Of a stretch of DNA of 43,535 bases, positions 6,924 through 20,025 are shown in pieces; the first letter of the stretch is position 1; each line of letters starts with the position of its first letter. Source of the stretch: a virus. The position numbers and the translations under genes were made by a program. The stretch is taken from the IMG/VR virus record IMGVR_UViG_3300007351_000024. One strand, 5' to 3'. The notes below the pieces were generated by a model. That model ran no database searches. It saw only the letters and a program-made list of their open reading frames with translations, and was not told where the DNA came from.

Positions 6924-7148
6924 ATGAAAGAAACATGGAAAGAGCACAAAGGATTTAAGGACGAATCACCTCGTCCCATGTACATCCAATTCCCAGACTG
7001 GTGGTATAAGGAGCACAACCTAGAGCCAGTGGAGCTTTGGACACTTAAAAATATTAAGTTAGAGGTTATAGGTAAGTCCAATTTACCTACTTATACACAC
7101 GATGAACTTGACCAAGAAATAGCACAAGATACCATGAAGGGCACATGA
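6924..7148 (+). CDS. Hypothetical protein
   Basis: 74-aa ORF with an ATGA overlap into the GT6 gene. Confidence 0.55.
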   Translation: MKETWKEHKGFKDESPRPMYIQFPDWWYKEHNLEPVELWTLKNIKLEVIGKSNLPTYTHDELDQEIAQDTMKGT

Positions 7149-8350
7149 AGGTGCGAAAAGCAAAAATCGCTCTCCCAAAAAATAAGTATTTCTCCAAGTT
7201 TGAAGTAAATGATGACGGACTGGTAGCAGAAATTAAGGAAAAGAAGAAAGTAGCACTCCTATTCGTGTGCCTTAACGACCTCTACTGGCCGTATGTTATC
7301 CAGGTAGTAAAGGACTGTAAGAAACATTTTCTTCCTCACCACAACGTAGATTTCTTTGTCTGGTCAGATTTGCACCGTTTCCAAGAAGTGAAGAACAGTA
7401 TTGTAGCTGAATCTGAACACATTGTAGGTACTCCAAAGGAGAAAGCCGCCAAAGCAGTAGATTTTGCGGTAAAGACCATCCAATACTTCCAGCTCTATCC
7501 CGCTACCCCACAGTACGTCCAAGACCTACAGAAGATGCAGGTCTTTTATCGCGTTGACCCCTCTAAAGGAATTGCCTTTATCGAAGCCGCTGTAAATCAA
7601 GATGACGAGAAACAGGTCAACCATTTCGTAGACATCCTTAAATCAGTGTGTTTTTCCATCATTCGGTCAGCAGAAGAAGAATTGGAGAACTTCCTAAAAG
7701 GAGTAACGCTTATCGAATCAGACCCTGCGCCATGGCCAGCACCTACACTCATGCGCTACCACCTCTTCTTAAACGAAGAGGAAAGACTGAAGAAGTACGA
7801 CTATTTGTTTTACTTAGATTCCGACATGAAAGTCGTCCAGAAGGTGAGTGATGAACTCTTAGGAGAAGGTCTTACCGCCGCACCTCACCCTGGCTATGCG
7901 GTAAATAAGCGTATGTTGCCTCCGTATGAGCCAAATCCAGAGTCTACCGCCTACATTCATCGTTTGGGTCATGTTGTTGAGGAAGAGCCTGGAAAGAAGC
8001 GTTTTTACCCGTTCTACGCGGCAGGAGGACTCCAAGGAGGAGTCGCAAAGAAGTTCTTAAAGGCCATGAGGGTAATGAAAAAGGGAATCAATGATGATTT
8101 TGACAAGAATTACACCGCTATCTGGAACGACGAAAGCCATTGGAATAAGTATCTGTGGGAGTACCAGAGAAAAGGTGGCGACATTACGTTCCTTGACGTT
8201 TCATATGTATACCCTGATTCTCTCTTGAAAGAGTATTACATCCCCATGTGGGGCAAAGAATACGAGCCCAAGATAATCACCCTTACAAAACCTTGGTCTG
8301 TCTCAAAAGAAGGAGGTAGACAACTCTCGGAGTTCATCAAACCGCAATGA
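7145..8350 (+). CDS. Glycosyltransferase family 6 (ABO / alpha-1,3-Gal(NAc)-transferase-like), DXD-containing
   Basis: 401 aa. These motifs align with human GTA/GTB as I recall them: 'KKHFLPHHNVDFFVWSD' (KHF..GH.V..YVFTD), 'YDYLFYLDSDM' (DYLVCVDVDM), 'LTAAPHPGYA', 'YEPNPESTAYI' (YERRPQSQAYI), 'FYAAGGLQGG' (FYYLGGFFGG) and 'IWNDESHWNKYLW' (VWHDESHLNKYLL). Confidence 0.85.
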   Translation: MKVRKAKIALPKNKYFSKFEVNDDGLVAEIKEKKKVALLFVCLNDLYWPYVIQVVKDCKKHFLPHHNVDFFVWSDLHRFQEVKNSIVAESEHIVGTPKEKAAKAVDFAVKTIQYFQLYPATPQYVQDLQKMQVFYRVDPSKGIAFIEAAVNQDDEKQVNHFVDILKSVCFSIIRSAEEELENFLKGVTLIESDPAPWPAPTLMRYHLFLNEEERLKKYDYLFYLDSDMKVVQKVSDELLGEGLTAAPHPGYAVNKRMLPPYEPNPESTAYIHRLGHVVEEEPGKKRFYPFYAAGGLQGGVAKKFLKAMRVMKKGINDDFDKNYTAIWNDESHWNKYLWEYQRKGGDITFLDVSYVYPDSLLKEYYIPMWGKEYEPKIITLTKPWSVSKEGGRQLSEFIKPQ

Positions 8351-9012
8351 AAACTACTTGCATAATTCCGAGCTACAACCAAGAAGAATACTTGGAAGAG
8401 GCGATAGAATCGGCCTTAGCTCAATCAGTTCCCTGTGAAGTACTTGTGATAGACGATGGTAGTACGGATAACTCCCTTGCAATCGCACAGAAATACGAGC
8501 CACGAGTGAGGGTAATTAGTCAGGTGAATAAAGGATTAGCGAGTGCGCGGAACACGGGGATAATGAACGCGACTGGAGAATACATTTTACCTCTCGATGC
8601 GGACGATTCCTTACTTCCTAGGTGTGTTGAGGTCTTAGAGATGATTGCCGATGCAACTGGCGCAGAGGTTGTATCTCCATCATTTCAGGAGTATGGGTTA
8701 GGAACTGCCACAGTTACCTTGATGGCGAATCCTACATTGGAGGACTTCAAAGTAGGTAATCGTGTTGGGTATTGTTCTCTGATAAAGAAATCAGCTTTGT
8801 TAGAAGTTGGAGGATATTCACCTCGAATGGTTGAAGGATACGAAGACCTGCATATGTGGTTCAACTTACTCACCAGAGGTTTTAGAATCGTTACCGTACC
8901 GGAGCCGTTATGGAAATATCGAATTAAAGAAAAGTCCATGTTTAAGGATGCACTCAAACACCACGACAAGCTAATGGCGCAGATTTATAAGGATTTTCCA
9001 CAAGCAAAATAA
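8347..9012 (+). CDS. Glycosyltransferase family 2
   Basis: 221 aa. 'CIIPSYNQEEYLEEAIESALAQS', 'VLVIDDGSTDNS', 'NKGLASARNTGI' and 'LPLDADD' form the classic GT-A/GT2 signature. It has an ATGA overlap upstream. Confidence 0.9.
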   Translation: MKTTCIIPSYNQEEYLEEAIESALAQSVPCEVLVIDDGSTDNSLAIAQKYEPRVRVISQVNKGLASARNTGIMNATGEYILPLDADDSLLPRCVEVLEMIADATGAEVVSPSFQEYGLGTATVTLMANPTLEDFKVGNRVGYCSLIKKSALLEVGGYSPRMVEGYEDLHMWFNLLTRGFRIVTVPEPLWKYRIKEKSMFKDALKHHDKLMAQIYKDFPQAK

Positions 9013-9013
9013 T

Positions 9014-9613
9014 ATGCCTAAAGTCTCTATAGTCATCCCCTATCACGATACTCCACAGACAGCGTTCTTTCTATGTCGCTTACTGGCAACACTCAATGAA
9101 CAGACATATCAAAATTACGAGATTGTTCTAATGAAAGAGGGAAGAATGGGAAAGACCTACAATGCGTGCATAAAGAAAGCCACGGGGGACATTATAAAGC
9201 TCATGGGAATGGATGATTACTTCTTTGACAAAGATTCATTACAGAAAATTGTAGATGCTTTCAAACATGAGGAGGTGTATTGGCTTGCCACCGCATGTCT
9301 GCACGACCAAGGGAAAGGACCAAATAATTACCACGAAGCGAATTGGAATGACAAGCTGTTTAAGGGATACAACACAGTAGGTGGATTTGCGACCATCAGT
9401 TTGAGAAACAAGGATATACCAGAAATTGATGAATCACTTGATTGGACGGTAGATGTGGACTGGTACTGGCGTATTTATAAGCAACACGGCCTCCCTTACA
9501 CGATTAAGGATGCCGTCGTGGTCATTGGTGTTGGGCCTCATCAAACCACGGAGAAAATTAGCATGGAACAGAAGAATAAAGAATGGGAGGAAACTTCTAA
9601 AAAATATGAGTAA
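9014..9613 (+). CDS. GT2-like (GT-A fold) glycosyltransferase
   Basis: 199 aa. 'VSIVIPYHD...LATLNEQTYQNYEIVL' and 'GDIIKLMGMDDYF' (DD as a DXD-like motif) are present. It is more diverged than the preceding GT2. Confidence 0.65.
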   Translation: MPKVSIVIPYHDTPQTAFFLCRLLATLNEQTYQNYEIVLMKEGRMGKTYNACIKKATGDIIKLMGMDDYFFDKDSLQKIVDAFKHEEVYWLATACLHDQGKGPNNYHEANWNDKLFKGYNTVGGFATISLRNKDIPEIDESLDWTVDVDWYWRIYKQHGLPYTIKDAVVVIGVGPHQTTEKISMEQKNKEWEETSKKYE

Positions 9614-10625
9614 ACGAGTATTGTTAACTGGCATTTCAGGTTCGATTGCGACTCATTTTGTAGCGCACTTCATGCACAACACCGATTGGGAAATAATCGG
9701 CATTGACTCGTTCAGGCACAAAGGATGGGGTGAGCGTTTGCTTGAAGTTACCAGTGAACACCCTGAATGGAGAGACAGAATCTCTGTCCATACCCATGAC
9801 CTCTCGGCTCCCCTTTCACCGATTCTTAAAAGACGCCTTGGGAAGATTGATTACATCATCTCTATGGCTTCCCTTTCTGACGTAGAAGCCTCTATTCAAG
9901 ACCCTGTGCCTTTTGTACAAAACAATGTTAACTTAGCCCTTAACTTACTTGAATATGCGAGAGAAGCGAAACCCGAAGTCTTTATCCAAATCTCAACCGA
10001 TGAAGTCTACGGTGCGTCTGCCTCGAAGTTTGGTGATTTACGGAAAGAGTGGGATGCCATTATCCCTTCTAATCCCTATGCCGCTTCAAAGGCGGCGCAA
10101 GAAGCCATAGCTATCTCTTACTGGAGAACCTATGGTGTCCCTGTAATCATCACAAACACGATGAATAACTTTGGGGAAATGCAACAACCCACTAAATATC
10201 CCGTGATGATTCAGAAAGCAGTAGAAAATGGCGAAACTATTCTCATTCATGGAAGGGAGGGACAAATCGGCTCTCGCTCATACATCCACTCACGGAACTT
10301 TGCGGATGCAATTTTGTTCATTCTCAAGAATCTTCCTCCTCACATGCACGTACCGCTTTCAGCGGATAGGCCGGATAGGTATAACATTGCAGGAGATAAA
10401 CAACTGGATAATCTTGAACTCGCACAGACAATCGCCTCTCTCATGGGGAAAGAATTAAAATACGAACTCGTTGACTCTCACAGTGCCCGACCTGGACACG
10501 ACCCGCACTATGGCCTTGATATGACGAAGCTATACAGCAAGGGTTGGAAATCACCGAAAACGTTTGAAGAATCCCTTTCTGGAACTATCAAATGGCAACA
10601 GGAGCATAAAGAATGGATTGAATAA
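9606..10625 (+). CDS. NDP-hexose 4,6-dehydratase (RmlB/RfbB-like extended SDR)
   Basis: I moved the start from 9453 to the in-frame ATG at 9606 ('MSKRVLLTGISGSIATH', a Rossmann motif). 'STDEVYG', 'YAASKAAQE' (YxxxK), 'TNTMNNFGEMQQP' and the C-terminal 'RPGHDPHYGLD...GW.P' are all present. Confidence 0.85.
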   Translation: MSKRVLLTGISGSIATHFVAHFMHNTDWEIIGIDSFRHKGWGERLLEVTSEHPEWRDRISVHTHDLSAPLSPILKRRLGKIDYIISMASLSDVEASIQDPVPFVQNNVNLALNLLEYAREAKPEVFIQISTDEVYGASASKFGDLRKEWDAIIPSNPYAASKAAQEAIAISYWRTYGVPVIITNTMNNFGEMQQPTKYPVMIQKAVENGETILIHGREGQIGSRSYIHSRNFADAILFILKNLPPHMHVPLSADRPDRYNIAGDKQLDNLELAQTIASLMGKELKYELVDSHSARPGHDPHYGLDMTKLYSKGWKSPKTFEESLSGTIKWQQEHKEWIE

Positions 10626-10626
10626 T

Positions 10627-10776
10627 ATGTTAAAACTTCCTCCCAAATACAAGACAAAAAGAAAAGGGCGTCCACAACCCAACTCTCACCCCTGGAAACA
10701 GGTTTTCGTACTCACCTATCCTAAGAAAATCTTTTCTTCTGGGTATAAGATAAAAAAGAACCATGCGACCCGTTAG
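10627..10776 (+). CDS. Possible small basic protein (49 aa)
   Basis: The ATG lies 1 nt after the dehydratase stop, the typical junction here. It fills an otherwise unusual 137-nt gap and overlaps the GT11 start by 14 nt. It has no recognisable motif. Confidence 0.3.
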   Translation: MLKLPPKYKTKRKGRPQPNSHPWKQVFVLTYPKKIFSSGYKIKKNHATR

Positions 10777-11350
10777 ACAAGTCATCGGAGGGTTGGGCAA
10801 TCTCATGTTCAAGGAGGCGTTTTTGTGGTCTTTGGCGCGTGAGAAGTTGATACCTGATGTGTATGTTCAGGGTGAACATTATTGGGAAAAATATGCACAT
10901 GAGATACAAACACTATTTGGTCATGGTATTGGCCATGATGAGCGCATTGCTCTACATATTCGTAGAGGAGACTACTTAAAAGTTCAACAATTTCACGTCA
11001 ACCTTTGGGACACTGATTATTATAAAGTAGCAGTTTCTCTGTTCCCAAAAGAAAAGTTCCTCGTGTTTTGTAAGGACAATCAAAGTGAAGCACAAGACAA
11101 GGATGACCGTGAGTGGTGTGAAAAGAATATCCCATCATTGGGTATTGATTTTGAACTCCACAATCACACAACAGAAACAGAGGATATGAACACAATGGCC
11201 AGTTGTAAAGGGATTATCATGGCAAATAGTAGCTTTTCTTGGTGGGCGGCGTACTTAGGAAATCCTAAAAAGAAAGTCGTTTGCCCTGCGAAATGGTTTA
11301 CGGATGGAGCACAAAGGACGCAATTACTTTCTAAGTGGACTCTTGTATGA
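10763..11350 (+). CDS. Glycosyltransferase family 11 (alpha-1,2-fucosyltransferase-like)
   Basis: 195 aa. 'VIGGLGNLMFKEAF' corresponds to GGLGNQMFQYA, 'ALHIRRGDY' to HIRRGDY, and 'MANSSFSWWAAYLG' to SNSTFSWWAAYL. Confidence 0.85.
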   Translation: MRPVRQVIGGLGNLMFKEAFLWSLAREKLIPDVYVQGEHYWEKYAHEIQTLFGHGIGHDERIALHIRRGDYLKVQQFHVNLWDTDYYKVAVSLFPKEKFLVFCKDNQSEAQDKDDREWCEKNIPSLGIDFELHNHTTETEDMNTMASCKGIIMANSSFSWWAAYLGNPKKKVVCPAKWFTDGAQRTQLLSKWTLV

Positions 11351-12291
11351 AAGTTGCAATCACAGGTTCATTAGGTCTTACAGGTTCAGCTTGTATGGAG
11401 ATGTGTAAGAAGAAAGGATGGACTCCTGTTGGAGTAGACGCAAATATGCGCAGCTACTTTTTCGGTACTCCTAAACAGGAATATGGCGATTCCATTGAAC
11501 TGGATATAAGAAACCAAGAAGCTGTTGAGGAGCTTTTTAAGCAACACAAGTTTGACGCAATCATTCATACAGCCGCACAACCATCTCACGATTGGGCAAA
11601 GAACGACCCTTTAATGGACTTCGATACAAATGCACGAGCCACCCTCATTCTCTTAGAGGCGACACGCAAGTACGCTCCAGATGCAATTTTTGTGCATGTA
11701 TCTACTGACAAGGTATATGGTGAAAATATGACAGGAAGTGAAAAACCTTTCACTGAAACGCTTGGATTAGACTTTGCAGGTGTTCGTTCCCTATTTGGAT
11801 GCTCAAAAGCCGCTTCTGATATGTACGCACAGGAATATGCAAACTATTTCGGAATGAAAGTTGTAGTGTTTCGTCCTGGGTGCATAACAGGAAAAGTCCA
11901 TCAAGGTGCGGAATATCACGGATTCCTTGCGTATCTAGCGAAGTGCATTAAAGAGGGAATTACCTACAAAGTGCATGGGGATGGCAAACAAGTACGCGAC
12001 CAAATACATGCGAGTGATTTAGCAGATGCGTTCGGGCACGTTATTTCTGACTTTAAGGGAAGTAATGTCTACAACATTGGGGGTGGACCGAACCGTTCTG
12101 TTTCTCTCCTAGAGGCAGTTGATATGATTGAGAAAGAGACAGGGAAGAAAGCCAAATTAGAGTTTGGATTCCCTAACAGGAGAGGAGACCGCCTATGGGA
12201 TGTACATGATGTAACAAAGTTCCGTTCCGATTACCCTGATTGGGACTATCAATACTCACTACAAGATATTATTAAAGAACTTTCTGCATGA
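11347..12291 (+). CDS. NAD-dependent sugar epimerase/reductase (extended SDR, CDP-paratose/tyvelose 2-epimerase-like)
   Basis: I set the start at ATG 11347 (ATGA overlap with the GT11 stop; 'MKVAITGSLGLTGSA'). 'STDKVYG' and 'YGCSKAASDMYAQEYANYFGMKVVVFRPGCITG' (YxxxK) are present. Confidence 0.8.
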   Translation: MKVAITGSLGLTGSACMEMCKKKGWTPVGVDANMRSYFFGTPKQEYGDSIELDIRNQEAVEELFKQHKFDAIIHTAAQPSHDWAKNDPLMDFDTNARATLILLEATRKYAPDAIFVHVSTDKVYGENMTGSEKPFTETLGLDFAGVRSLFGCSKAASDMYAQEYANYFGMKVVVFRPGCITGKVHQGAEYHGFLAYLAKCIKEGITYKVHGDGKQVRDQIHASDLADAFGHVISDFKGSNVYNIGGGPNRSVSLLEAVDMIEKETGKKAKLEFGFPNRRGDRLWDVHDVTKFRSDYPDWDYQYSLQDIIKELSA

Positions 12292-13454
12292 AATATAAAT
12301 GGCGATACGGAGGGGCGCTAGTCGGTAAGGAAGAACGTAAGGCAATTCTTCGTTCCTTTGATAGCGGATGGTTCCCATGGGGTAAGGAGGGTGAAAAGTT
12401 TGAAGAAGAAGCCGCCAAGTATCTTGGAGTAAAGTATGGTCTTGGTGCTAACAGTGGCTCAAGTGCTGGATTACTTGCGTTAAGTGCCCTTGAATTGGAA
12501 AAGGGTAGTGAGGTTATCATTCCGGCGGTTACATTCCCTACAATCTTCAACATAATTCTTCAGTGTGGCCTCATTCCTGTTGTCGTAGATACCAAGGTAG
12601 GAACCTACAACATAGACCCTGACCAGATAGAAAAAGCAATTTCAGGAAAGACGAAAGCGATTATCTGTGTCCATGCAGTAGGGAACCCCTGCGACATGGA
12701 ACGCATTATGAAGATAGCTAACGAACACAAACTATATGTCATTGAAGACAACTGCGACGGTTGGGGAGGTACTATTGGCTCTAAAAGAGTTGGAACATTT
12801 GGCCACATATCCTTCACCTCATTCCATGCCGCGCATATTGTTGCTATGGGACAAGGTGGGGGAGTATTTACGAACGATAGAGAACTTGCCCGTAAAGTGC
12901 GAATGTATCGAGACTGGGGAAGACAAAGTGAAATCAAAAGCAGAATCAACAATAAAAAATGGCCGACGCTCCCCGAAGACCAAGACGCGAGGTTCATCTA
13001 CGAAAAGATAGGGTACAACCTTTCTCCTCTTGAATTACAAGCGGCGATGGGGAGAGTTCAGTTGCGAAAGACAGAGAAAATTAAACGATTGCGGAGAAGA
13101 AACTTTGATTATCTCTATAAAGAACTTTCAAAGTTTGATGACTTAATAATGCCAATAACAGTAGAGGGTGCTAACCCCTCATGGTTTTCTTTTCCCCTTA
13201 CAACGACGGAAGAACGTATGCCGCTTCTCATGCACTTAGAAGAGAACGGTGTAGAGACAAGAAGCATGTTTGCAGGGAACGTGCTACGTCATCCGGCCTA
13301 TGAGGGAGTGCCACACCGACAAGTGGGGAATCTCCAAAACTCTGATTACATTCTTCGCCATTCATTCTGGATACCTGTGCATCCTCGCTACTCTCCAAAA
13401 GACCTTAAAGGAATGGTTAAGGTCTTCGAGAAGTTCTATGCTAAAACTTCCTAA
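12288..13454 (+). CDS. DegT/DnrJ/EryC1-family PLP/PMP enzyme, sugar 3-dehydrase-like (E1/ColD-like). His occupies the Schiff-base Lys position.
   Basis: 388 aa. Motifs are 'NSGSSAGLLAL', 'IIPAVTFPT', 'EDNCDGWG', 'SFHAAHIVAMGQGG' (typical aminotransferases have SFH..K....GEGG), 'RDWGR', 'GYNLSPLELQAAMG', 'PSWFSFP' and 'FAGNVLRHPAY'. Confidence 0.8.
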   Translation: MKYKWRYGGALVGKEERKAILRSFDSGWFPWGKEGEKFEEEAAKYLGVKYGLGANSGSSAGLLALSALELEKGSEVIIPAVTFPTIFNIILQCGLIPVVVDTKVGTYNIDPDQIEKAISGKTKAIICVHAVGNPCDMERIMKIANEHKLYVIEDNCDGWGGTIGSKRVGTFGHISFTSFHAAHIVAMGQGGGVFTNDRELARKVRMYRDWGRQSEIKSRINNKKWPTLPEDQDARFIYEKIGYNLSPLELQAAMGRVQLRKTEKIKRLRRRNFDYLYKELSKFDDLIMPITVEGANPSWFSFPLTTTEERMPLLMHLEENGVETRSMFAGNVLRHPAYEGVPHRQVGNLQNSDYILRHSFWIPVHPRYSPKDLKGMVKVFEKFYAKTS

Positions 13455-14022
13455 CGTAACACTCATTCTCCTCACTAACCGCGACTTCGCGGGAGCTAAA
13501 AAAGCTATTGATGAGTCATGCAATGAGATAGAGTTTGGAGGTGTAAAGCTGATTTGGGATGAAAAGATTTCCTCCATTGATGAATGGAATCGCAAGGTAA
13601 TTCAAGAGTTACCAGATTATGTTCACACTACCCATGCCCTCCTCATTCACCAAGACGGCTACGTAAAGAATCCAGCGTTATGGAATACGGAATGGTTGCT
13701 TTTAGATTACATAGGTGCTCCATGGCCTATGCCTGTAGATAATTTTTCCTACAAGGATGATAAAGGTAGACTGCAACGAGTTGGAAACAGTGTGTCGTTA
13801 CGTTCTAAGGAGCTCATGGAATTAGTAAGAACGAGAGAGTGGCGACCTTACTACGGATTTACTAATGAGGATGGCTTTATCTGTTGCCATAACAGGGGTT
13901 GGCTCGAAGACCAAGGGTGTAAGTTTGCAACGCTTGAGCAAGCAGTTCATTTCTCTAAGGAACATGAGATACCAGAGAATAAAGGCATTAACACGTTTGC
14001 ATTTCATAAAGTAGATGTATGA
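13438..14022 (+). CDS. DUF5672-like putative glycosyltransferase
   Basis: I set the start at the in-frame ATG 13438 ('MLKLPNVTLILLTNRDF'). 'HQDGYVKNPALW...LDYIGAPW...VGNSVSLRSKEL' matches my recollection of the DUF5672 pattern (H.DG...n...W..fl.yDYIGAPW...vGNGGfSLRs). Confidence 0.55.
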   Translation: MLKLPNVTLILLTNRDFAGAKKAIDESCNEIEFGGVKLIWDEKISSIDEWNRKVIQELPDYVHTTHALLIHQDGYVKNPALWNTEWLLLDYIGAPWPMPVDNFSYKDDKGRLQRVGNSVSLRSKELMELVRTREWRPYYGFTNEDGFICCHNRGWLEDQGCKFATLEQAVHFSKEHEIPENKGINTFAFHKVDV

Positions 14023-14531
14023 GTATTGCAGAAGAAAAATACGAAGAGCTACTGAAAACCCCCTCGGATGTAAACATGCACTTCCCTACAATACGGAAGT
14101 ATGTGAAAGAGGGAGACATTGTCGTTGAGCTGGGCGTGCGTAACTGTGTTTCTACGTGGGCACTCTTAGTGAGTAAACCAAAGCATCTTATTTCAGTAGA
14201 CATAGTTGCTCCTCCTTTTGGGAATGTCTTGGAAGTAGAACAAGCGGCACGAGAGCAAGGAAGTGGATTTAATTTTGTACAGCAAGACTCAATAAACATT
14301 GAGATTAAACCTGCGTGCGATGTCCTGTTCATAGACACACTCCATTTGTATAGCCATATCGTCAAAGAGTTGTGGCGTCATGCGGGAAGAACAAAAAAGT
14401 ACATCATCTTCCATGACTATCTCATTCCTGAAGTCAGCGCATGTATCCATGATTTTCTCTACAATCCTGATTGGGAATGGCAAGAAATTAACTCGGAGGG
14501 AACGGGACTCGCAGTAGTGAAGCACGTATGA
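14019..14531 (+). CDS. Class I SAM-dependent methyltransferase
   Basis: 170 aa. 'SDVNMHFPTIRKYVKEGDIVVELGVRNCVSTWALL' and 'DVLFIDTLHLYSHIVKELWRHAGRTKKYIIFHD' match a common phage and bacterial methyltransferase family. It has ATGA overlaps on both sides. Confidence 0.7.
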   Translation: MSIAEEKYEELLKTPSDVNMHFPTIRKYVKEGDIVVELGVRNCVSTWALLVSKPKHLISVDIVAPPFGNVLEVEQAAREQGSGFNFVQQDSINIEIKPACDVLFIDTLHLYSHIVKELWRHAGRTKKYIIFHDYLIPEVSACIHDFLYNPDWEWQEINSEGTGLAVVKHV

Positions 14532-15220
14532 TTCTCATAACAGGTTACAGAGGATGGATTGGCTCTCTTCTTGCTGATGAGTTTGACGAGTTTTCAGGTA
14601 TTGATGTAAGAGATGGGACAAACCTCATTACGTGTGCTCTACCACCTCCAGAAGAAGTAGATATCATCTATCATCTTGCGGCTCAATCTTCTGTGGAGTA
14701 TTCATGGTACGACCCAATCCATGATGCAGATAACCTGCGAATGACTATTAGGTTAGTACATGCGTATCCTGAAGCGAAACTTATCTATACAAACTCTGCG
14801 GCATCAAAAGACCGTTCATCTCCGTATGGATTCTCTAAATGGGCGTGCGCTGAATATATCAAGCAATTCCACAACAATTACGTCATTTGCACACTCCCTA
14901 ATGTATATGGCGAGGGTTCCCGAAGTGTCGTAGATATCTTCAAAGAACTGGATGAAGTGGAGGTATATGGAAGTGGAGATAACACAAGAACGTATGTGCA
15001 CGTAGATGATATCATTCAAGCACTGCTCAAAGCCCAAGATTGGCGGTGTGGTGAATATGAGTTGGGTAATGGAATAGCAACGAGTGTTATTGAACTCGCA
15101 CAAGGAAAGAAAGTGAATCATTTGCCTCCTCGTATGGAATCGAAAGAATCTGTCATTCAGAACTCTACTCCAAATTGGGAACCGAAGATAAATGTGTTTG
15201 AGTATTTGAAAGATGTATGA
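14528..15220 (+). CDS. Short NAD(P)-dependent epimerase/reductase (SDR)
   Basis: 230 aa. It has 'MILITGYRGWIGSLL' (Rossmann motif), 'IIYHLAAQSS', 'YGFSKWACAEY' (YxxxK) and 'LPNVYGEG'. Confidence 0.7.
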   Translation: MILITGYRGWIGSLLADEFDEFSGIDVRDGTNLITCALPPPEEVDIIYHLAAQSSVEYSWYDPIHDADNLRMTIRLVHAYPEAKLIYTNSAASKDRSSPYGFSKWACAEYIKQFHNNYVICTLPNVYGEGSRSVVDIFKELDEVEVYGSGDNTRTYVHVDDIIQALLKAQDWRCGEYELGNGIATSVIELAQGKKVNHLPPRMESKESVIQNSTPNWEPKINVFEYLKDV

Positions 15221-16017
15221 TTGCTGGGATTTTCCATGAAGGTAGCGGATTAGGCGACCAACTCTTTAGATACATTACTGTCAGGACTCTTGCAGAAGAA
15301 AAAGGATATAAGTTTTCTATGGTTTTTCCCGAAGCATTCAAAGCAAACTTCTTTCTTAATTTAACTACTATTGAACCATTCCAACCAAAGTCTAAAGACT
15401 CTACATTTCACGCGAGTCGTTGGAATGAGAAAGAAGTAAAAGAAAATGGTTTAGACATTCGGTCCTACGACCCTGAAATTAACTTTGTAGAAGATAACAC
15501 CGTTATTGATGGTTCATTTGAAGACTCAAAGTATTGGGGACACAACTTAGATAACATTAACAAGTGGTTGCGAGTAGAACCGTTAGAAGTACCTAACGAT
15601 ACTGTAGTTCTCGGTTTTCGAGGTGGAGAGTATTACACAGACCCGAATCTTGGATTACCAAGAGAGTATTTTGAGAACGCAATGAGTTATTTTACTCCTC
15701 GTGTTGAGTTTCAAGTGCATACCGATGACCCCGATTTTGCGATGAAGTTCTTTCATAGCGTGAAAGGGAACATGAGCTTTGTAGATAACAAACCTATTTC
15801 ACATAGTAAACATGAAAATATGGGATTCAATTGGAGGTCAGCGCGATTTGCAAAGCACGCAATAATTCCTAACAGTGCTTTCTTTATTCTTCCTCGCTTA
15901 CTGAAACATCATGAAGACCCTACTGCTGTGACGATAGCTCCGCGTTATTGGGCTAGACGCAACACAAAGACCTGGGCTAGACCTGCTTGTTACTACAAGC
16001 AATTCACGTATGTTTGA
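15217..16017 (+). CDS. GT11-like / fucosyltransferase-fold glycosyltransferase (diverged)
   Basis: 266 aa. 'GSGLGDQLFRYITVRTLAEEKGY' is motif I-like, 'VLGFRGGEYY' stands in place of HIRRGDY, and 'AIIPNSAFFILPRLL' stands in place of SNSTFSWW. Confidence 0.5.
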   Translation: MIAGIFHEGSGLGDQLFRYITVRTLAEEKGYKFSMVFPEAFKANFFLNLTTIEPFQPKSKDSTFHASRWNEKEVKENGLDIRSYDPEINFVEDNTVIDGSFEDSKYWGHNLDNINKWLRVEPLEVPNDTVVLGFRGGEYYTDPNLGLPREYFENAMSYFTPRVEFQVHTDDPDFAMKFFHSVKGNMSFVDNKPISHSKHENMGFNWRSARFAKHAIIPNSAFFILPRLLKHHEDPTAVTIAPRYWARRNTKTWARPACYYKQFTYV

Positions 16018-16065
16018 TTACCCGAAAAGTTGGGTTTGGAATCTTATTCTTAGAGTAATCGAACT

Positions 16066-16710
16066 ATGGAAGCGGTACTTGTAAATTACAACTATAACCC
16101 GACGTGGGTGCTAGAATATCCTGATTTAGAGCCAATTATTTACGATAGGAGCGACGATGGGATTGAGAGGAATCTGACGCGCTATGGCCCTGTATATAAA
16201 ACAGAGAATATTGGCAATGTTGATTACGACAAACTAGGATACTTAATCAAAAACTATGATGCTCTTCCTGAATATTTCTTGTGGGGGAAATCGAACCTAT
16301 TCAAATACATTTCAAAAGAAGAATTTGATGCAGTCAAAGATAATCAAACCTTCACTCCATTGCTAACACAGAACCACCATACGTACTCTGATAATACGTT
16401 GCCTGAAGGTAATCCGGTTTGTTTCTACAAAGACAAAATGTATCACGAAAGAAAAGGCATCGTTAATACCCTTCCAGGGTTAATGCTCCACAAATACTTC
16501 GATTCGTGGGAAGAGTGGTGTAAAGAGTTTCATATTCCTGAAGTTGGTCATATTCCCTTTCCACCAGGTGGCAACTTTATCCTCACACGAGAAGCAGTTT
16601 GGAAATATAGTCGTGATTTCTACCAAAAGATGCGTGATACACTGGACTATACACAGCTTCCTTTTGAAGCGCAGTTAGCCGAGAGGAGTTATTACTTGTT
16701 ATGGCGATAA
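16066..16710 (+). CDS. Hypothetical protein inside the glycan operon
   Basis: 214-aa ORF that overlaps the next gene by 10 nt. 'NIGNVDYDKLGYLIKNYDALPEYFLWGK' is faintly reminiscent of DUF3431-type proteins, with very low certainty. Confidence 0.55.
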   Translation: MEAVLVNYNYNPTWVLEYPDLEPIIYDRSDDGIERNLTRYGPVYKTENIGNVDYDKLGYLIKNYDALPEYFLWGKSNLFKYISKEEFDAVKDNQTFTPLLTQNHHTYSDNTLPEGNPVCFYKDKMYHERKGIVNTLPGLMLHKYFDSWEEWCKEFHIPEVGHIPFPPGGNFILTREAVWKYSRDFYQKMRDTLDYTQLPFEAQLAERSYYLLWR

Positions 16711-17477
16711 TTGATTGTTTCACCTATAACGGAGAACGAGATATCTTGCGAATTCATCTTGAATGTACGCCATGGGTAGATAAGTACATCATCGTTGAAG
16801 CAAATCAGACATTCACAGGGAAGCCAAAACCTCTCTATTTCTTCAGGGACAATCGCTATTACAAGAAATGGTGGAACAAGATTGATTATTTCGTGGTAAA
16901 TAAGTGGGACGATGATGCTCTCTGGGAAACAGCACGTTCTAGTCCACTCACAAAAGGGGCAGAGCACTGGAAGCGAGAGTTTTACACAAAAGAGCATGTA
17001 CTTAGAGCTCTTCGCTCATGTGGTACTCAACCTGACGACATTGTATATGTAGGGGATGTAGATGAGATTCCTATGCAATGGAATGGTCCTATGCCAGCTA
17101 AATTACGGCTTAAAGTCTATGCGAATTACCTCAACAATCGCTCAAACGAGCTATTCTGGGGCACATACGTAGCGCCATATAATTATTTTAAGGACAGGTT
17201 GATGAATAACGAACGCAACAGGAAAGATATCCGAACCAACGAAGAATGTGGCTGGCATTTCACTAGCATGGGGGGACTAAAGGAAGTACAACGCAAACTT
17301 AATGACACTTACACAGCCGAAACATATGCCGCACCACAGATTCTTGAAATGGTTCCTGAACGCCACGCAAAAGCAGTAGATATATTTGGAAGACACTACA
17401 CATTTACGGTGGATGAATCGGAATGGCCTACGTATCTCAAGGAGAATAGAGCTAAGTTCAAACATTTATGTCTGTAG
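16701..17477 (+). CDS. Glycosyltransferase family 17-like (GnT-III-like), paralogue 1
   Basis: 258 aa. It has 'IIDCFTYNGERDILRIHLE...VDKYIIVEANQTFTGKPKPLYF', 'VGDVDEIP' and 'CGWHFTSMGG', which is the GT17 pattern (DcF.f.nE.d.L..Rl...VD.FviVEs..TF.G..Kpl ... DvDEIP ... GWHfS). Confidence 0.75.
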   Translation: MAIIDCFTYNGERDILRIHLECTPWVDKYIIVEANQTFTGKPKPLYFFRDNRYYKKWWNKIDYFVVNKWDDDALWETARSSPLTKGAEHWKREFYTKEHVLRALRSCGTQPDDIVYVGDVDEIPMQWNGPMPAKLRLKVYANYLNNRSNELFWGTYVAPYNYFKDRLMNNERNRKDIRTNEECGWHFTSMGGLKEVQRKLNDTYTAETYAAPQILEMVPERHAKAVDIFGRHYTFTVDESEWPTYLKENRAKFKHLCL

Positions 17478-18250
17478 TAGATTGTTTCACGTATTCGGGA
17501 GAGGTAGATATGCTCCATTTGCACTTATCCTGTCTTGACCCATACGTTGACCACTTTATACTAGGAGAAGCCGCGATAACGTTCTCTGGTCGCACAAAAC
17601 CTCTCTATTTTGACGAACAGTATACACAAGAGAGATTCCAAAAGTTCGTTCACAAAATCACCTATGCAGTCGTGGATGACTTCTATCATCCTAGTATTCT
17701 CAAGTACATGCAGAGGTTTAATTGGTATGAGATGAACTATCCATTCAAGATGTCTTTCAACCAAAAAGAACACCTGCAAGTAGGGTTGTCAGCACTAGGA
17801 TTAAAGGAATCTGACACTGTATATTTCGGCGATTGTGATGAGATTTGGACGCCACAAACACCTCAAAAGGAAGCGCATAAGTTGGAACAACTCATGTACT
17901 CATATCACCTAAACAGGCGTTCAACAGAGAAATGGGCGGGCACGTTTATTGCTCCTTACAAGGAAGTGAAAGAGAAAGGAATCAATCATTTGCGTAAAGA
18001 AACCACCAAGACACTACCAAATGGCGGCTGGCACTTTACGAATATGGGTGGCCTAGAGGCGGTACACAAGAAACTACGAGACTACGACCACCAAGAGATA
18101 AACACGGCGGACATCCATTCCAACCTTGAAAGGAGATTCAAAGAAGGCATTGATTTCTTGGGTAGAGAACACCGTATGTATGTAGATGAATCAGAGTGGC
18201 CTATCTACCTAAAGGAACATAGAGAAGAATACAAACACTTATGTCTATAG
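17468..18250 (+). CDS. Glycosyltransferase family 17-like, paralogue 2
   Basis: 260 aa. It has 'VVDCFTYSGEVDMLHLHL...VDHFILGEAAITFSGRTKPLYF', 'FGDCDEIW' and 'GGWHFTNMGG'. It shares the C-terminal '...EWP.YLKE.R..(F/Y)KHLCL' with paralogue 1. Confidence 0.75.
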   Translation: MSVVDCFTYSGEVDMLHLHLSCLDPYVDHFILGEAAITFSGRTKPLYFDEQYTQERFQKFVHKITYAVVDDFYHPSILKYMQRFNWYEMNYPFKMSFNQKEHLQVGLSALGLKESDTVYFGDCDEIWTPQTPQKEAHKLEQLMYSYHLNRRSTEKWAGTFIAPYKEVKEKGINHLRKETTKTLPNGGWHFTNMGGLEAVHKKLRDYDHQEINTADIHSNLERRFKEGIDFLGREHRMYVDESEWPIYLKEHREEYKHLCL

Positions 18251-18371: not shown

Positions 18372-18662
18372 ATGCAAGAAGAAGAGAATACAGGAGAACA
18401 GGAAAAAAACAGCAGAGAATGGCTTAAACCTTATCAATACAAGAAAGGGCAAAGTGGAAACCCTGATGGAAGACCTAAAGGTTCCGTATCGATGAAGACA
18501 TATGTGAAGAATAAGTTGCTCTCAATGACTCCAGAGGAGAGAGAAGAGTTTTTAGAGGGAATTGATAAGAAGACGATATGGGAGATGGCAGAGAATAAAC
18601 CAACCCAAGACCTACAAGTAGATGCAGATGTCAGAGAACACATCATCAGCGTTGACGAATGA
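18372..18662 (+). CDS. Putative small terminase / DNA-binding protein (DUF5681-like 'GNPDGRPKG' motif)
   Basis: 96 aa, immediately upstream of the large terminase and overlapping it. The motif is 'KKGQSGNPDGRPKGS'. Confidence 0.5.
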   Translation: MQEEENTGEQEKNSREWLKPYQYKKGQSGNPDGRPKGSVSMKTYVKNKLLSMTPEEREEFLEGIDKKTIWEMAENKPTQDLQVDADVREHIISVDE

Positions 18663-20025
18663 GAGCATTGATAAGTTCTCGGACTTGTCAGGTTTCTTTC
18701 CTAAACAGCGTGAAGCACAAGAGGCAAGCAAACGCTTCAAGTTCACTTTATTTGGTGGAAGTGTAGGAAGTGGTAAATCAAGGTGGCTTCGCTGGATGAT
18801 GATTTACTGGCTCTTAAAGTACTACTCCAAGTACAAGATAAAGGGCATAAGAGCAGGATTGTTTTGTGAGGATTATCCCAGCTTGAACGACAGACACTTA
18901 ACCAAGGTTCGCTTTGAGTTCCCTGAATGGCTAGGAACATACAACGAGTCTAAAAAAGAGTTCACTCTTAAAGAGAAATATGGAAGTGGCATCCTTGCGT
19001 TTCGTAACCTTGATGAACCAGAGAAATACTTGTCTGTTGAGTTTGCTGTCATGGGAGTAGATGAAATCAATCGTAACCCTAAGACCACTTTTGATATGTT
19101 GCGTTCACGTCTTCGATGGCCTGGTATTAAAGATGTGAAGTTCCTTGCGGGATGTAACCCTCTAGGAGAGGCGTGGGTAAAGAATATCTGGGTCAAACGT
19201 CTCTTCTCACCAGAAGAGAAAGAGCAATACGAGTTTGTGTTCGTTCCTGCATTACCTACTGACAATCCACACTTAGATGCGTCGTACTACAAATCTCTTG
19301 AATCACTGCCTGAAACACAACGCAAAGCATATTTGGAGGGAAATTGGGATGCGTTTGATGAAGGCATGGATGAGAAGGGCTACTTGCGTTTAGTGAATGA
19401 CAGAGAATTACGTGGCTCAATGGTACAAACAGGAGAGCACTCTGGGTACAGAGTATTAGGCGTTGACCCTGCGGCTGGTGGAGACAATTCAGCCATAGTG
19501 TTGAAGAGCGCAAACCTGCAAGAAATCCTCTTCAATCAGAAGCTACAGAACACCATGGACTTAGTTGGAGTCATTATGGAGTTATATAGGGACTATGAGG
19601 CGGCAATGATTGTAGTGGACTCAACAGGAGTAGGACGTGGAGTGTATGACCGCTTACGTGAGACAGATTATCCTGTGAGGAATGTGGACTTTGGTTCTAA
19701 GCCAACAGATGAAACGATGTTTAAGGACATCAAGGCAGAGCTGTATTGGAAACAGCGAGAATGGCTCTTAAAGGGAGGACGCTTGTTACATAACTACGGA
19801 TGGAATGAGTTTGAGATAGTGAAGTACAAGCACATGGATGGAAACTCCAAGATTCGCATACAGCCTAAAGAGGAGTTGTTCAGAGAGGGCATCGCTTCTC
19901 CCAACTGTGTGGACGCTGCCGTATTGACGATGGCAATAAGCGACACCACAATAAGAAGCAATCGTATGCTTAACAGCGGTACTGTGTTTAGAGACAAAAT
20001 GCTCGACGTATGGCAAGGAAACTAA
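18622..20025 (+). CDS. terL: Terminase large subunit
   Basis: 467 aa. It has a Walker A motif 'GGSVGSGKS' and a Walker B-like 'VMGVDEINR'. The C-terminal nuclease-like region includes 'VLGVDPAAGGDNSAIV'. It sits upstream of the portal gene. Confidence 0.9.
   Translation: MQMSENTSSALTNESIDKFSDLSGFFPKQREAQEASKRFKFTLFGGSVGSGKSRWLRWMMIYWLLKYYSKYKIKGIRAGLFCEDYPSLNDRHLTKVRFEFPEWLGTYNESKKEFTLKEKYGSGILAFRNLDEPEKYLSVEFAVMGVDEINRNPKTTFDMLRSRLRWPGIKDVKFLAGCNPLGEAWVKNIWVKRLFSPEEKEQYEFVFVPALPTDNPHLDASYYKSLESLPETQRKAYLEGNWDAFDEGMDEKGYLRLVNDRELRGSMVQTGEHSGYRVLGVDPAAGGDNSAIVLKSANLQEILFNQKLQNTMDLVGVIMELYRDYEAAMIVVDSTGVGRGVYDRLRETDYPVRNVDFGSKPTDETMFKDIKAELYWKQREWLLKGGRLLHNYGWNEFEIVKYKHMDGNSKIRIQPKEELFREGIASPNCVDAAVLTMAISDTTIRSNRMLNSGTVFRDKMLDVWQGN

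Follow-up and report, generated by a model that had tools for sequence, protein, structure and literature searches.

Does a phage carry the enzymes for building blood-group-like glycans? For a viral sequence of 43,535 nucleotides (IMG/VR record IMGVR_UViG_3300007351_000024, analysed over its whole length and called the window below), a sequence-only reading had proposed that a GT6 and a GT11 glycosyltransferase in one operon form the pair that makes ABH-type determinants, either for mimicry on virions or for converting the host serotype.

A glycan operon at the core of a phage lineage

The window encodes a large terminase, a portal and a major head protein, and its ends repeat, so that the contig is probably circular and a complete genome. 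The GT6 and GT11 genes, with three genes between them, lie in the 5' part of an operon of 14 genes (~11 kb, 7145-18250) that abuts the terminase genes (18372..20025), its downstream boundary. Start and stop codons of the operon genes overlap, and their GC content is like that of the rest of the genome. Besides these two, it holds six to seven more glycosyltransferase-like genes and a pathway for a 3,6-dideoxyhexose (Table 1). For the 4,6-dehydratase, the ATG at 9606 was taken as the start (the listed open reading frame begins at 9453), and the start of the DUF5672 gene was inferred from the L001 orthologue. Operon synteny is kept in ~30 related metagenomic phage contigs of 40-44 kb, across which the transferase genes are retained and the sugar-nucleotide genes are swapped; the glycan operon belongs to the core of a large, uncultured lineage of ~43-kb tailed phages. 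The window yielded neither an integrase nor Wzx, Wzy, a GtrA-like protein or any other multi-pass membrane protein, which makes the suggested serotype conversion of a lysogen unlikely.

Table 1. Features of the glycan operon and its downstream boundary in the window
Feature	Position	Strand	Evidence
GT6 glycosyltransferase, 401 aa	7145..8350	+	Pfam, PHROG, NCBIfam, PDB phmmer/profile searches, AlphaFold2 and Foldseek
GT6 inserted accessory domain, residues ~76-195	7370..7729	+	Alignment, insert-length table, pLDDT, P-SSM2 comparison
DXD metal/UDP-binding motif D225-S-D227	7817..7825	+	Aligned with GTA DVD and BoGT6a N95-A-N97
Glu330, equivalent of catalytic Glu303 (GTA)/Glu192 (BoGT6a)	8132..8134	+	HMMER alignments; family-invariant
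GT2 glycosyltransferase, 221 aa	8347..9012	+	Pfam PF00535, 122.8 bits
GT2-like glycosyltransferase, 199 aa	9014..9613	+	Pfam PF00535, 34.9 bits; lineage-conserved
NDP-hexose 4,6-dehydratase, dTDP-glucose type, 339 aa	9606..10625	+	TIGR01181, 192.6 bits (cutoff 365)
GT11-family transferase, reduced N-terminal domain, 195 aa	10763..11350	+	Pfam, homologues, AlphaFold2, BFVD
GT11 HIRRGDY motif	10955-10975	+	
SDR enzyme, nearest CDP-tyvelose 2-epimerase	11347..12291	+	PDB 9rl0, 137.9 bits; 1orr, 111.8 bits
PMP/PLP-dependent NDP-4-keto-6-deoxyhexose 3-dehydratase (E1/RfbH/ColD type)	12288..13454	+	Profile and PDB matches
DUF5672 protein, probable glycosyltransferase-like enzyme	13438..14022	+	Pfam PF18922, 42.2 bits; lineage core
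Weak methyltransferase-like protein	14019..14531	+	Pfam PF13578, 20 bits, below cutoff
Short SDR, 230 aa, candidate 4-ketoreductase of the sugar pathway	14528..15220	+	Pfam Epimerase, 70 bits; PHROG 540
Divergent full-size relative in the GT11-like fucosyltransferase superfamily, 266 aa	15217..16017	+	hhalign
DUF3431 protein	16066..16710	+	Pfam PF11913, 33.4 bits
Two tandem GT17-like glycosyltransferases	16701-17477, 17468-18250	+	Pfam PF04724, 69.2 and 70.9 bits
Candidate small terminase	18372-18662	+	ORF list
Large terminase	18622-20025	+	PHROG 2, 112 bits

The GT6 is of the DXD type and carries an accessory domain

On the GT6 protein, Pfam PF03414 scored 55.8 bits (cutoff 25), PHROG 3317 scored 122 bits and NCBIfam Gltr_6 reached 136 bits, below its cutoff of 250. 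The closest solved structures in a phmmer search of the PDB were BoGT6a (E=4e-16) and human GTA/GTB (E ~2e-10), which a profile of 49 homologues matched at 4e-28 and 8e-22, respectively. Foldseek aligned the AlphaFold2 model (pLDDT 88.9) with BoGT6a, GTA and GTB at target-normalised TM values of 0.65-0.84. Family scores, PDB matches and predicted fold agree with the earlier assignment, confirming a genuine GT6 with the GT-A fold of BoGT6a and GTA.

All motifs named in the sequence-only reading are present and align as it stated: KHF..H.V..V.sD corresponds to GTA residues 64-92, HPGY includes H248, Ala293 and Gly295 of FYAAGGLQGG line up with GTA positions 266 and 268, and WNDES includes W327 and E330. 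The DXD is acidic, as had been claimed, and the enzyme is predicted to be metal dependent because it is of the DXD type. Residues D225, D227, H248, Y291, A293, G295, W327, E330, K376 and K382 are invariant in the 49 homologues; the catalytic role of the glutamate at the Glu330-equivalent position is described in PMC3516806. The enzyme is predicted to be a retaining alpha-1,3-GalNAc/Gal transferase.

Ala293/Gly295, singled out earlier as occupying the positions that discriminate GTA from GTB, are identical to Ala155/Gly157 of the GalNAc-transferase BoGT6a (PMC3516806). Gly250 at position A2 is likewise shared with the fucose-dependent GTA and BoGT6a. Some acceptor residues differ from those of the fucose-dependent enzymes: the acceptor-binding threonine of BoGT6a (Thr134) and GTA (Thr245) is replaced by an invariant Pro260, and Tyr373 falls at the fucose-gating position A7, a placement by motif spacing rather than structural superposition, in which P375-K376-x5-K382 was matched to what we take to be the C-terminal P345-K346-x5-R352 of GTA. 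In alpha3GT, a bulky Trp at A7 keeps out the 2'-fucose. The GT6 of cyanophage P-SSM2, like that of the window, has a Tyr at the equivalent spot. The P-SSM2 GT6 has been placed with PaGT6 in one published DXD clade, of which PaGT6, a Mg/Mn-dependent GalNAc-transferase, is the sole assayed member; it is active on H trisaccharide and 2'-fucosyllactose and not on LacNAc.

The insertion relative to the vertebrate enzymes, previously put at about 80 aa, holds up and is larger: 120 residues separate D75 from P196, compared with 17 in minimal phage forms. The insert is predicted to be a folded domain of ~105 aa (pLDDT 93-98) comprising three helices, a beta-hairpin and a long helix, and it is missing in BoGT6a, in the P-SSM2 GT6 and in part of the phage family.

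A GT11 of half size

Pfam PF01531 matches the GT11 protein with 76.3 bits (cutoff 23.9), covering only positions 145-281 of the 298 in the profile. The elements GGLGN, H65-I-R-R-G-D-Y71, E138..D141.N143 and N155-S-S-F-S-W-W161 vary little or not at all among 40 homologues; the proposed family and its three motifs stand. The AlphaFold2 model (pLDDT 88) groups with viral alpha-1,2-fucosyltransferase-like proteins, its best BFVD matches. The protein has just 195 aa because its N-terminal domain has shrunk to a few helices, with most of the acceptor-side part gone, which leaves it ~70 aa shorter than the 264-aa P-SSM2 GT11; a PDB search gave no full GT-B match. This short length had been missed in the earlier reading. 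More than 1000 homologues of ~170-240 aa, mostly 194-200 aa, were found, and we regard the protein as a half-size variant with predicted transferase activity.

The operon holds a second, full-size superfamily member. Its hhalign comparison with the GT11 (A3 versus A2) gave a probability of 95.9% (E=5.7e-9), and one orthologue matches PF01531 (E=2.4e-4); its motif I is altered to F-R-G-G-E-Y.

Sugar-nucleotide genes around the GT11

Neither gmd nor fcl of the GDP-fucose pathway is encoded in the window, and the GT11 is flanked by genes for the dTDP-glucose-type 4,6-dehydratase, the E1/ColD-type 3-dehydratase and the CDP-tyvelose-2-epimerase-like enzyme, so a dideoxyhexose, not fucose, may be the 6-deoxy sugar. 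The 4,6-dehydratase scored only 38.5 bits with the gmd model and has RmlB-type enzymes as best PDB matches (E=3e-41). The 3-dehydratase reached 376 bits with the RfbH model NF011936 (cutoff 423), 286 bits with PDB 3bcx and 173 bits with ColD; in a residue-level alignment, His replaces the aminotransferase Lys and the Cys-rich loop of E1 is missing. Given the RmlB-like dehydratase and the CDP-tyvelose-epimerase-like enzyme, the sugar made by the phage may be linked to a nucleotide other than GDP, unlike the GDP-sugars that serve characterised GT11 enzymes as donors.

Among the relatives, the GT11 of L018 is immediately followed by a true Gmd (405 bits), accompanied by an aminotransferase (perosamine-type route) and not by fcl, L028 combines an Fcl/ColC-like enzyme with an RfbH-like dehydratase, and L020 carries GalE. 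Since the GT11 is kept in relatives without dideoxyhexose genes, its donor is not tied to the dideoxyhexose pathway.

GT6 and GT11 are recurrent neighbours

Of 17 GT6 loci outside the lineage, 9 (P-SSM2, L035, L037, L038, L042, L044, L045, L046 and L048) have a GT11 within 4 kb and seven have none nearby; within the lineage, GT11 directly adjoins GT6 in four members (L013, L017, L029 and L040). In BFVD, the GT11 model also matches a Megaviridae protein of 958 aa that carries a GT6 annotation. That the two recur as neighbours in viral and bacterial loci of unrelated origin supports the view that they act one after the other on a single galactose, and a functional pair is plausible. Of the proposed ABH pair, both family assignments stand; with gmd and fcl missing, dideoxyhexose genes around the GT11 and divergent acceptor residues in the GT6, the "ABH-type" product is an inference.

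Proposed mechanism and alternatives

In the mechanism that we propose, the phage 4,6-dehydratase, ColD/E1-type 3-dehydratase and SDR reductase/epimerases would turn an NDP-hexose of the host into a 3,6-dideoxyhexose, and a set of soluble glycosyltransferases would then build a heteroglycan. The GT11-type enzyme would transfer a 6-deoxy-L-hexose, either fucose drawn from the host or a colitose-like dideoxyhexose made by the phage, to O-2 of a beta-galactose in it, whereupon the DXD-type GT6 would add alpha-1,3-GalNAc (Gal being the less likely donor) to the same galactose. Expression would fall in lytic infection, from a late operon running on into the terminase genes, and the target may be either proteins of the virion or an envelope glycan of the host, made on host lipid carriers. 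The product would be a blood-group-A/H-like branched epitope or a deoxy analogue. We give this mechanism as a whole an even chance of being right.

A stricter version, in which GDP-L-fucose of the host is the donor from which the GT11 makes Fuc-alpha-1,2-Gal (H) and the GT6 completes the blood-group-A determinant with GalNAc, we consider unlikely. The GT11 motifs and BFVD matches, the GTA- and BoGT6a-like donor and acceptor residues of the GT6, the need of PaGT6 for fucosylated acceptors, the GT11 of relatives that lack dideoxyhexose genes and the gmd of L018 would all suit it; it is at odds with the absence of gmd and fcl from the window, with dideoxyhexose genes on both sides of the GT11 and with the perosamine-type company of that gmd.

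The two enzymes might also be no functional pair, the GT6 using an unfucosylated or non-galactoside acceptor and the GT11 acting elsewhere in the heteroglycan, so that their co-occurrence would reflect a shared large cluster. Pro260 and the Tyr at the putative A7 gate, the three intervening genes, the seven loci without a GT11 and the many alternative partners among seven to eight transferase-like genes are consistent with this, yet we judge it improbable: the two are neighbours in unrelated bacteria and viruses, adjoin each other in four members of the lineage and perhaps form a single protein in Megaviridae, and the A7 Tyr recurs in the P-SSM2 GT6, a clade-mate of the fucose-requiring PaGT6. 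Least probable, and rather remote, is that the GT11-like protein is not autonomous, being a donor-binding subunit of another cluster protein or non-catalytic, with the 15217-16017 relative possibly doing the transfer. Its truncated N-terminal domain, the PDB result and the presence of that full-length protein in the lineage core point this way; against it, the catalytic and donor motifs, R67, R68, D70 and NSSFSWW among them, are all invariant across the family of >1000 homologues, which indicates purifying selection on catalysis, and it is the full-size relative that has the altered motif I.

Relation to previous records

The pairing itself is of limited novelty. Cyanophage P-SSM2 has an annotated GT11 and GT6 in one cluster, three genes apart, a phage clade of DXD-type GT6 has been known since 2012 (PMC3516806) and GT6 and GT11 in soil phages were reported in 2025 (PMC12016548), which weakens the earlier view that a phage-borne module would be notable. 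What is new is that the GT6 has accessory domains, that the GT11 is of half size and that the module holds a core position in a small phage genome. The phage GT6 and GT11 are real relatives of the two families that build the human ABH blood-group sugars.

GT6 and GT11 lie in a 14-gene operon of a phage genome

The genes for GT6 and GT11 belong to a tightly packed operon that occupies a quarter of a phage genome and continues directly into a candidate small terminase followed by the large terminase (see table). The GC content of the operon is the same as that of the remaining genome. Because the contig ends repeat, the window is probably a circular complete genome of ~43.4 kb (~43,436 bp). Megablast of the cluster and the structural region against 50,697 deposited phage records found no close relative, and the major head protein shows only 25-29% identity to head proteins of Bacillus podophages and faecal contigs. 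Scans of the window detected neither a tRNA nor an Rfam match; promoter-like sites were rarer than in shuffled sequence, and the promoter and terminator scans are uninformative about the transcription unit. Expression of the operon appears to fall in the late phase of a lytic infection.

Features of the phage genome and of the glycan operon
Feature	Coordinates	Strand	Assignment and evidence
Terminal repeat	1-99 / 43437-43535		Initial 30 bases recur at 43437, 99 bases from the end (30-base match checked)
Operon	7145-18250	+	14 genes, ~11 kb
Gene 1	7145-8350	+	GT6
Insert in GT6	7370-7729		Accessory domain
Gene 2		+	GT2
Gene 3		+	GT2-like
Dideoxyhexose gene set	9606-15220		Variant carried by the window
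Gene 4	9606-10625	+	RmlB-type NDP-hexose 4,6-dehydratase (TIGR01181 192.6 bits; RmlB PDB matches)
Non-coding gap	10626-10762		137 bp, between 4,6-dehydratase and GT11
Gene 5	10763-11350	+	GT11 (PF01531)
Gene 6	11347-12291	+	SDR nearest CDP-tyvelose 2-epimerase
Gene 7	12288-13454	+	E1/RfbH/ColD-type 3-dehydratase (RfbH model 376 bits; PDB 3bcx 286 bits)
Gene 8		+	DUF5672 protein
Gene 9		+	Weak methyltransferase-like protein
Gene 10	14528-15220	+	Short SDR
Gene 11	15217-16017	+	266-aa divergent full-size GT11-superfamily relative (hhalign)
Gene 12		+	DUF3431 protein
Genes 13 and 14		+	Two GT17-like genes
Large terminase	18622-20025
Portal	20443-22422		Related to the portal of phage SU10
Major head protein	25300-26394
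Tail-region protein	31953-34271	+	772 aa, L-Ala-D-Glu peptidase-like segment
Tail-region protein	34277-37732	+	1151 aa, C-terminal CAP (cysteine-rich secretory protein) domain
Tail-region protein	38071-38718	+	Separate M23 peptidase

The M23 peptidase is the third cell-wall-related feature of the tail region. Within the operon, the gap in front of GT11 contains no promoter, terminator or RNA feature that our scans could find; the same gap is present in the metagenomic locus L004. In locus L001 the dehydratase is longer (365 aa) and reaches right up to GT11. Scanning GTDB genomes with GT6 returned metagenomic bins only, for example "Coxiella sp. RIFCSP" and a "Cellvibrionaceae" bin with a 43,426-bp contig. 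We read the two near-relative bins as misbinned phage contigs; neither points to a host, and neither shows a prophage.

GT6 retains the catalytic residues of its family

The ABO, alpha-Gal and Forssman antigens are made by enzymes of the GT6 family, of which the first gene of the operon encodes a genuine member. Its product scores above the curated threshold of Pfam PF03414 (55.8 bits, cutoff 25), and a sequence search of the PDB gave as nearest solved structures BoGT6a of Bacteroides ovatus (E=4e-16) and the human A and B transferases GTA and GTB (E ~2e-10), matches that were strengthened by a profile of 49 homologues to 4e-28 for BoGT6a and 8e-22 for GTA. The AlphaFold2 model (pLDDT 88.9) found GT-A-fold relatives in Foldseek at E=4e-17 to 1e-14, with target TM scores of 0.79-0.84 on BoGT6a and 0.64-0.69 on GTA/GTB.

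A sequence-only reading of the window had likened this protein, motif by motif, to the human A/B transferases, and all motifs it quoted align as claimed with GTA and BoGT6a. The N-terminal KHF..H.V..V.sD block matches GTA residues 64-92, and H248-P-G-Y, W327 and E330 match the acceptor-binding His, the acceptor-binding Trp and the catalytic Glu (E303 of GTA, E192 of BoGT6a), respectively. The acidic DXD motif pointed out in that reading is borne out by D225-S-D227, which lies opposite DVD in GTA and N95-A-N97 in BoGT6a, and the small residues it had noted in FYAAGGLQGG, Ala293 and Gly295, fall on GTA positions 266 and 268 and are the same as Ala155/Gly157 of BoGT6a, a GalNAc-transferase. On proper alignment the catalytic residues, whose loss that reading had named as a refutation, are thus kept; D225, D227 and E330, together with H248, W327, Ala293, Gly295, K376 and K382, are invariant across the 49 homologues. 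From the likeness of Ala293/Gly295 to BoGT6a, the donor is predicted to be GalNAc. As a GT6 member the enzyme would be a retaining transferase that moves GalNAc or Gal from a UDP-sugar onto a beta-Gal acceptor in alpha-1,3 linkage.

The acceptor site agrees in part with the fucose-dependent (ABO-type) subgroup. His248 and Gly250, at acceptor positions A1 and A2, fit this subgroup, whereas two residues do not: Pro260 stands where GTA (Thr245) and BoGT6a (Thr134) have an acceptor-binding Thr, and Tyr373 is found at the putative position A7, the gate for the 2'-fucose, as placed by the spacing of a P-K-x5-K/R motif and not by structural superposition. The profile alignment to BoGT6a/GTA ends before the C-terminus, and P375-K376-x5-K382 of GT6 was matched to the P-K-x5-R pattern in the C-terminal sequence of GTA. 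Position A7 is small in GTA and BoGT6a and Trp in alpha3GT; what it says about the acceptor is uncertain because the GT6 of cyanophage P-SSM2 likewise has Tyr at that spot.

GT6 homologues carry one of two accessory domains

The insertion relative to the vertebrate enzymes, which the earlier reading had also noticed, comprises the 120 residues between D75 and P196, compared with 17 in minimal forms. AlphaFold2 predicts it confidently: three helices, one hairpin and one long helix make up an accessory domain of ~105 aa. An internal insert of 111-122 aa, always without a Cys-rich tail, is present in 26 of the 49 homologues; in the remaining 23 the loop measures 17-69 aa, and every one of them has a ~50-aa C-terminal tail containing three Cys (CPxC...C..G.GK.H). 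Long insert and Cys-rich tail are therefore mutually exclusive, with no exception among the 49 homologues, and neither is seen in characterised GT6 enzymes.

GT11 is a half-size protein and has a divergent relative in the same operon

GT11 does carry the three alpha-1,2-fucosyltransferase motifs ascribed to it, including HxRRGDY, and matches PF01531 with 76.3 bits (cutoff 23.9). The motifs GGLGN, HIRRGDY, E..D.N and NSSFSWW are invariant or nearly so in homologues, the invariant residues being H65, R67, R68, G69, D70, Y71, E138, D141, N143, N155, S156, F158 and W161. The protein does not have the full two-domain architecture of the family (~260-300 aa): it is 195 aa long and covers only positions 145-281 of the 298 in the PF01531 profile, with ~55 residues before motif I compared with ~140 in the GT11 of P-SSM2. 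In the AlphaFold2 model (pLDDT 88), helices only are followed by a single C-terminal Rossmann domain, and GT11 thus lacks most of its acceptor-side domain. The short length is no artefact, because homologues share it: the family has >1000 members, and those listed are ~170-240 aa long, mostly 194-200 aa. The half-size nature of GT11 had gone unnoticed in the sequence-only reading.

Searching the PDB with GT11 yielded no homologue by sequence; by fold, nothing but C-terminal domains of generic GT-B enzymes matched, and these weakly. Compared with BFVD, a collection of structures predicted for viral proteins, the model matches viral alpha-1,2-fucosyltransferase-like proteins best.

The 266-aa product of gene 11 has no Pfam match but aligns with the GT11 superfamily in hhalign at a probability of 95.9% (E=5.7e-9). 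This profile alignment identifies it as a divergent, full-size member of the GT11-like fucosyltransferase superfamily, of which the operon thus has two members. Its motifs are altered (GSGLGDQLHRY, INFRGGEY, ISNSAF), and the protein is core in the lineage of related 40-44-kb phage contigs that share the operon layout.

The operon encodes a dideoxyhexose pathway and no export machinery

The sugar-nucleotide genes bear the signature of 3,6-dideoxyhexose synthesis, namely a 4,6-dehydratase together with a PMP-dependent 3-dehydratase in which His replaces the Schiff-base Lys (SFHAAH, aligned to SFYPAHH of E1). The window shares this combination with ColD/ColC of E. coli O55 and with E1/RfbH of Yersinia and Salmonella. 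It differs from the colitose and dideoxyhexose systems in that the dehydratase is RmlB-like and not Gmd-like, and the epimerase CDP-tyvelose-epimerase-like and not ColC/Fcl-like, which leaves the nucleotide carrier ambiguous. From E1-type systems it differs in what is missing: Pfam and NCBIfam scans plus alignment found no E3 reductase, Fe-S loop or nucleotidylyltransferase in the operon, and the aligned 3-dehydratase is missing the Cys-rich E1 loop. Because this loop and an E3 reductase gene are both lacking, the alignment suggests ColD-like chemistry within an E1-like sequence, and we infer a ColD-like mechanism acting on a host NDP-hexose.

No gmd or fcl equivalog was found in the NCBIfam scan of the cluster proteins encoded in 7145-15220, nor a corresponding Pfam match in the remaining cluster genes. 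None of the cluster proteins has more than one TM-like segment, that is, there is no multi-pass membrane protein, and the cluster is without Wzx, Wzy, WaaL or a priming transferase.

Related phages keep the transferases and exchange the sugar genes

Metagenomes contain >1000 GT6 homologues (protein clusters at 90% identity), none of them informatively named and many on 40-44-kb contigs. About 30 related contigs keep the operon layout of the window. Essentially core in this lineage are GT6, both GT2 genes, GT11, the DUF5672 protein, the 266-aa protein, the DUF3431 protein and GT17, whereas the nucleotide-sugar genes are exchanged between relatives. Where the window has the dideoxyhexose set, a true GDP-mannose 4,6-dehydratase (405 bits) directly follows GT11 in locus L018 and is accompanied by an aminotransferase. 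L028 combines an Fcl/ColC-like enzyme with an RfbH-like dehydratase, L024 pairs an Fcl-like enzyme with an aminotransferase, and L020 carries GalE; the Gmd in L018 and the Fcl/ColC-like genes in L024 and L028 are adjacent to GT11. By analogy, the swapping of sugar genes around a fixed transferase set resembles the diversification of O-antigen loci, and this resemblance suggests that the glycan is under recognition-driven selection.

One relative, L022, harbours a probable homing endonuclease in its glycan operon: a 187-aa ORF (11648-12211) with an HNH/IscB-like nuclease segment, located between GT2 and GT11.

GT6 and GT11 recur as neighbours

GT11 makes the acceptor for fucose-dependent GT6 enzymes. 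In four members of the lineage the GT11 gene directly precedes the GT6 gene, with an overlap between the two. Outside the lineage, nine of 17 loci have GT11 within 4 kb of GT6, among them P-SSM2 and other viral contigs as well as bins labelled Pirellulales, Akkermansia, Lachnospiraceae, Ginsengibacter and an uncultured archaeon. In addition, a 958-aa protein annotated as GT6 in a Megaviridae environmental sample (BFVD A0A5J6VM96) matches the GT11 model (E=7.8e-6) and may, judging from this model match, be a GT6-GT11 fusion. This recurrent neighbourhood supports a predicted functional pairing of the two enzymes, which agrees both with the role of GT11 in making the GT6 acceptor and with the assay of PaGT6, the GT6 of Parachlamydia acanthamoebae.

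What the operon might build

The proposal that the pair builds ABH histo-blood-group-type determinants holds as far as both enzyme families are present, but several results weaken it. The window has no GDP-fucose route; the genes next to GT11 make a 3,6-dideoxyhexose on an ambiguous nucleotide carrier; GT11 is missing most of the acceptor-side domain; and in GT6 Pro260 replaces the acceptor-binding Thr and Tyr373 occupies the putative fucose gate. Bacterial GT6/GT11 loci form part of O-antigen clusters that also contain wzx and wzy, as in E. coli O86, where WbnK (GT11) and then WbnI (GT6) make a B-like O antigen; the window operon has neither gene, and a complete O-unit locus of the O86 type for an ABH antigen is not present, since no gmd, fcl, wzx or wzy was found among the cluster proteins scanned. 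Colitose is 3-deoxy-L-fucose; WbgN, which is a GT11 enzyme, attaches it at O-2 of Gal.

We give about an even chance to a mechanism, taken as a whole, in which the phage enzymes would make a dideoxyhexose from an NDP-hexose of the host, and a heteroglycan would be assembled by a set of seven to eight transferase-like proteins, all soluble. GT11 would add a 6-deoxy-L-hexose (fucose or a colitose-like analogue) at O-2 of galactose, and the metal-dependent GT6 would then put alpha-1,3-GalNAc on the same galactose, yielding an A/H-like branch or its deoxy analogue. The glycan might be targeted to virion proteins or to a host envelope glycan on host carriers.

Conversion of the host serotype, which the earlier reading had offered next to mimicry on virions, is unlikely in its lysogenic form. 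Among the ORFs scanned, which take in part of the small ones, there is no integrase or recombinase match and no multi-pass membrane protein, and hence no sign of a seroconverting prophage module of the gtrABC, oac or wzy-inhibitor type; the core status of the module and its position next to the packaging genes likewise disfavour classical lysogenic conversion. A role in DNA glycosylation was rejected as unlikely too: we saw neither a base-hydroxymethylase nor a related gene, and the enzymes belong to families that build glycans. A much more specific picture, which we consider improbable in its entirety, is that of a widespread, uncultured ~43-kb phage lineage (groundwater-derived bins, possibly soil) that would devote a quarter of its genome to decorating its virions or to re-coating the infected cell with a self-encoded, diversifying heteroglycan bearing a blood-group-A-like tip in which a dideoxyhexose takes the place of fucose; the two GT6 domains that exclude each other would be acceptor-docking modules, and GT11 a minimal, single-Rossmann enzyme of the fucosyltransferase type.

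Comparison with known systems

Among the closest precedents is the LPS-like cluster PSSM2_260-271 of cyanophage P-SSM2 (GenBank AY939844.2), in which the annotated GT11 (PSSM2_265) and GT6 (PSSM2_268) are three genes apart. Like the window it is a phage cluster with GT6 and GT11 a few genes from each other, GT2 enzymes and a nucleotide-sugar epimerase. Its GT6 likewise has a DXD motif (FDVDM) and Ala/Gly at the donor positions, and shares 37% identity with the window GT6 over the catalytic core; the GT11 proteins are 38% identical over the C-terminal domain. However, P-SSM2 is a 252-kb T4-like cyanomyovirus and the window a ~43-kb phage, its GT6 is minimal (231 aa) without the insert, and its GT11 is full size (264 aa). 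The P-SSM2 cluster is not terminase-adjacent and has no 3-dehydratase in the stretch inspected; both clusters are known from genes alone.

P-SSM2 and many metagenomic, probably phage, sequences belong to a prokaryotic/phage DXD clade of GT6 that includes PaGT6 (Thiyagarajan et al. 2012, PMC3516806). PaGT6, the one member of the clade that has been assayed, is a GalNAc-transferase dependent on Mg/Mn; it uses H trisaccharide and 2'-fucosyllactose as acceptors, is inactive with LacNAc, and thus needs Fuc-alpha-1,2-Gal (PMC3516806). The window GT6 shares with this clade the DXD motif and a soluble catalytic domain without membrane anchor, and differs from it by an N-terminal beta extension and the ~105-aa inserted domain. 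BoGT6a has the same Ala/Gly donor sites, and its acceptor and catalytic sites share His, Gly, Tyr, Trp and Glu with the window GT6, but it has NXN in place of DXD, is metal-independent and carries a C-terminal membrane-binding domain.

Two virion-glycosylation systems, that of mycobacteriophage capsids and tails (Freeman et al. 2023) and the capsid glycans of chlorovirus PBCV-1, share with the window soluble glycosyltransferases, an absence of export machinery, sugar-nucleotide genes and possibly methyltransferase genes. Their enzyme families differ from those of the window, for which virion proteins are one of two candidate targets.

Significance for phage glycan synthesis

A phage-borne A/B/H-like module is less notable than the earlier reading had held it to be, because a phage operon with GT6 and GT11 is already on record in P-SSM2. 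A 2012 paper had described the DXD clade, with its phage and metagenomic GT6 sequences, and proposed it to be ancestral to the vertebrate enzymes (PMC3516806), and phage GT6 and GT11 were reported together in a 2025 soil-virome paper (PMC12016548). New here are a GT6 with swappable accessory domains, the 195-aa GT11, a further and divergent gene of the GT11 type, the connection with dideoxyhexose synthesis and the status of the whole as a core late-operon module of a very large lineage of uncultured small phages. In such phages the DXD clade is itself very large (>1000 protein clusters at 90% identity), and its GT6 genes lie together with GT11 in a conserved late operon. Should the products indeed be epitopes of the A/H-like or colitose type, a large and so far unrecognised reservoir of these glycans would exist in environmental phages, which would also supply glycan synthesis with compact, soluble enzymes, the 195-aa GT11 among them.
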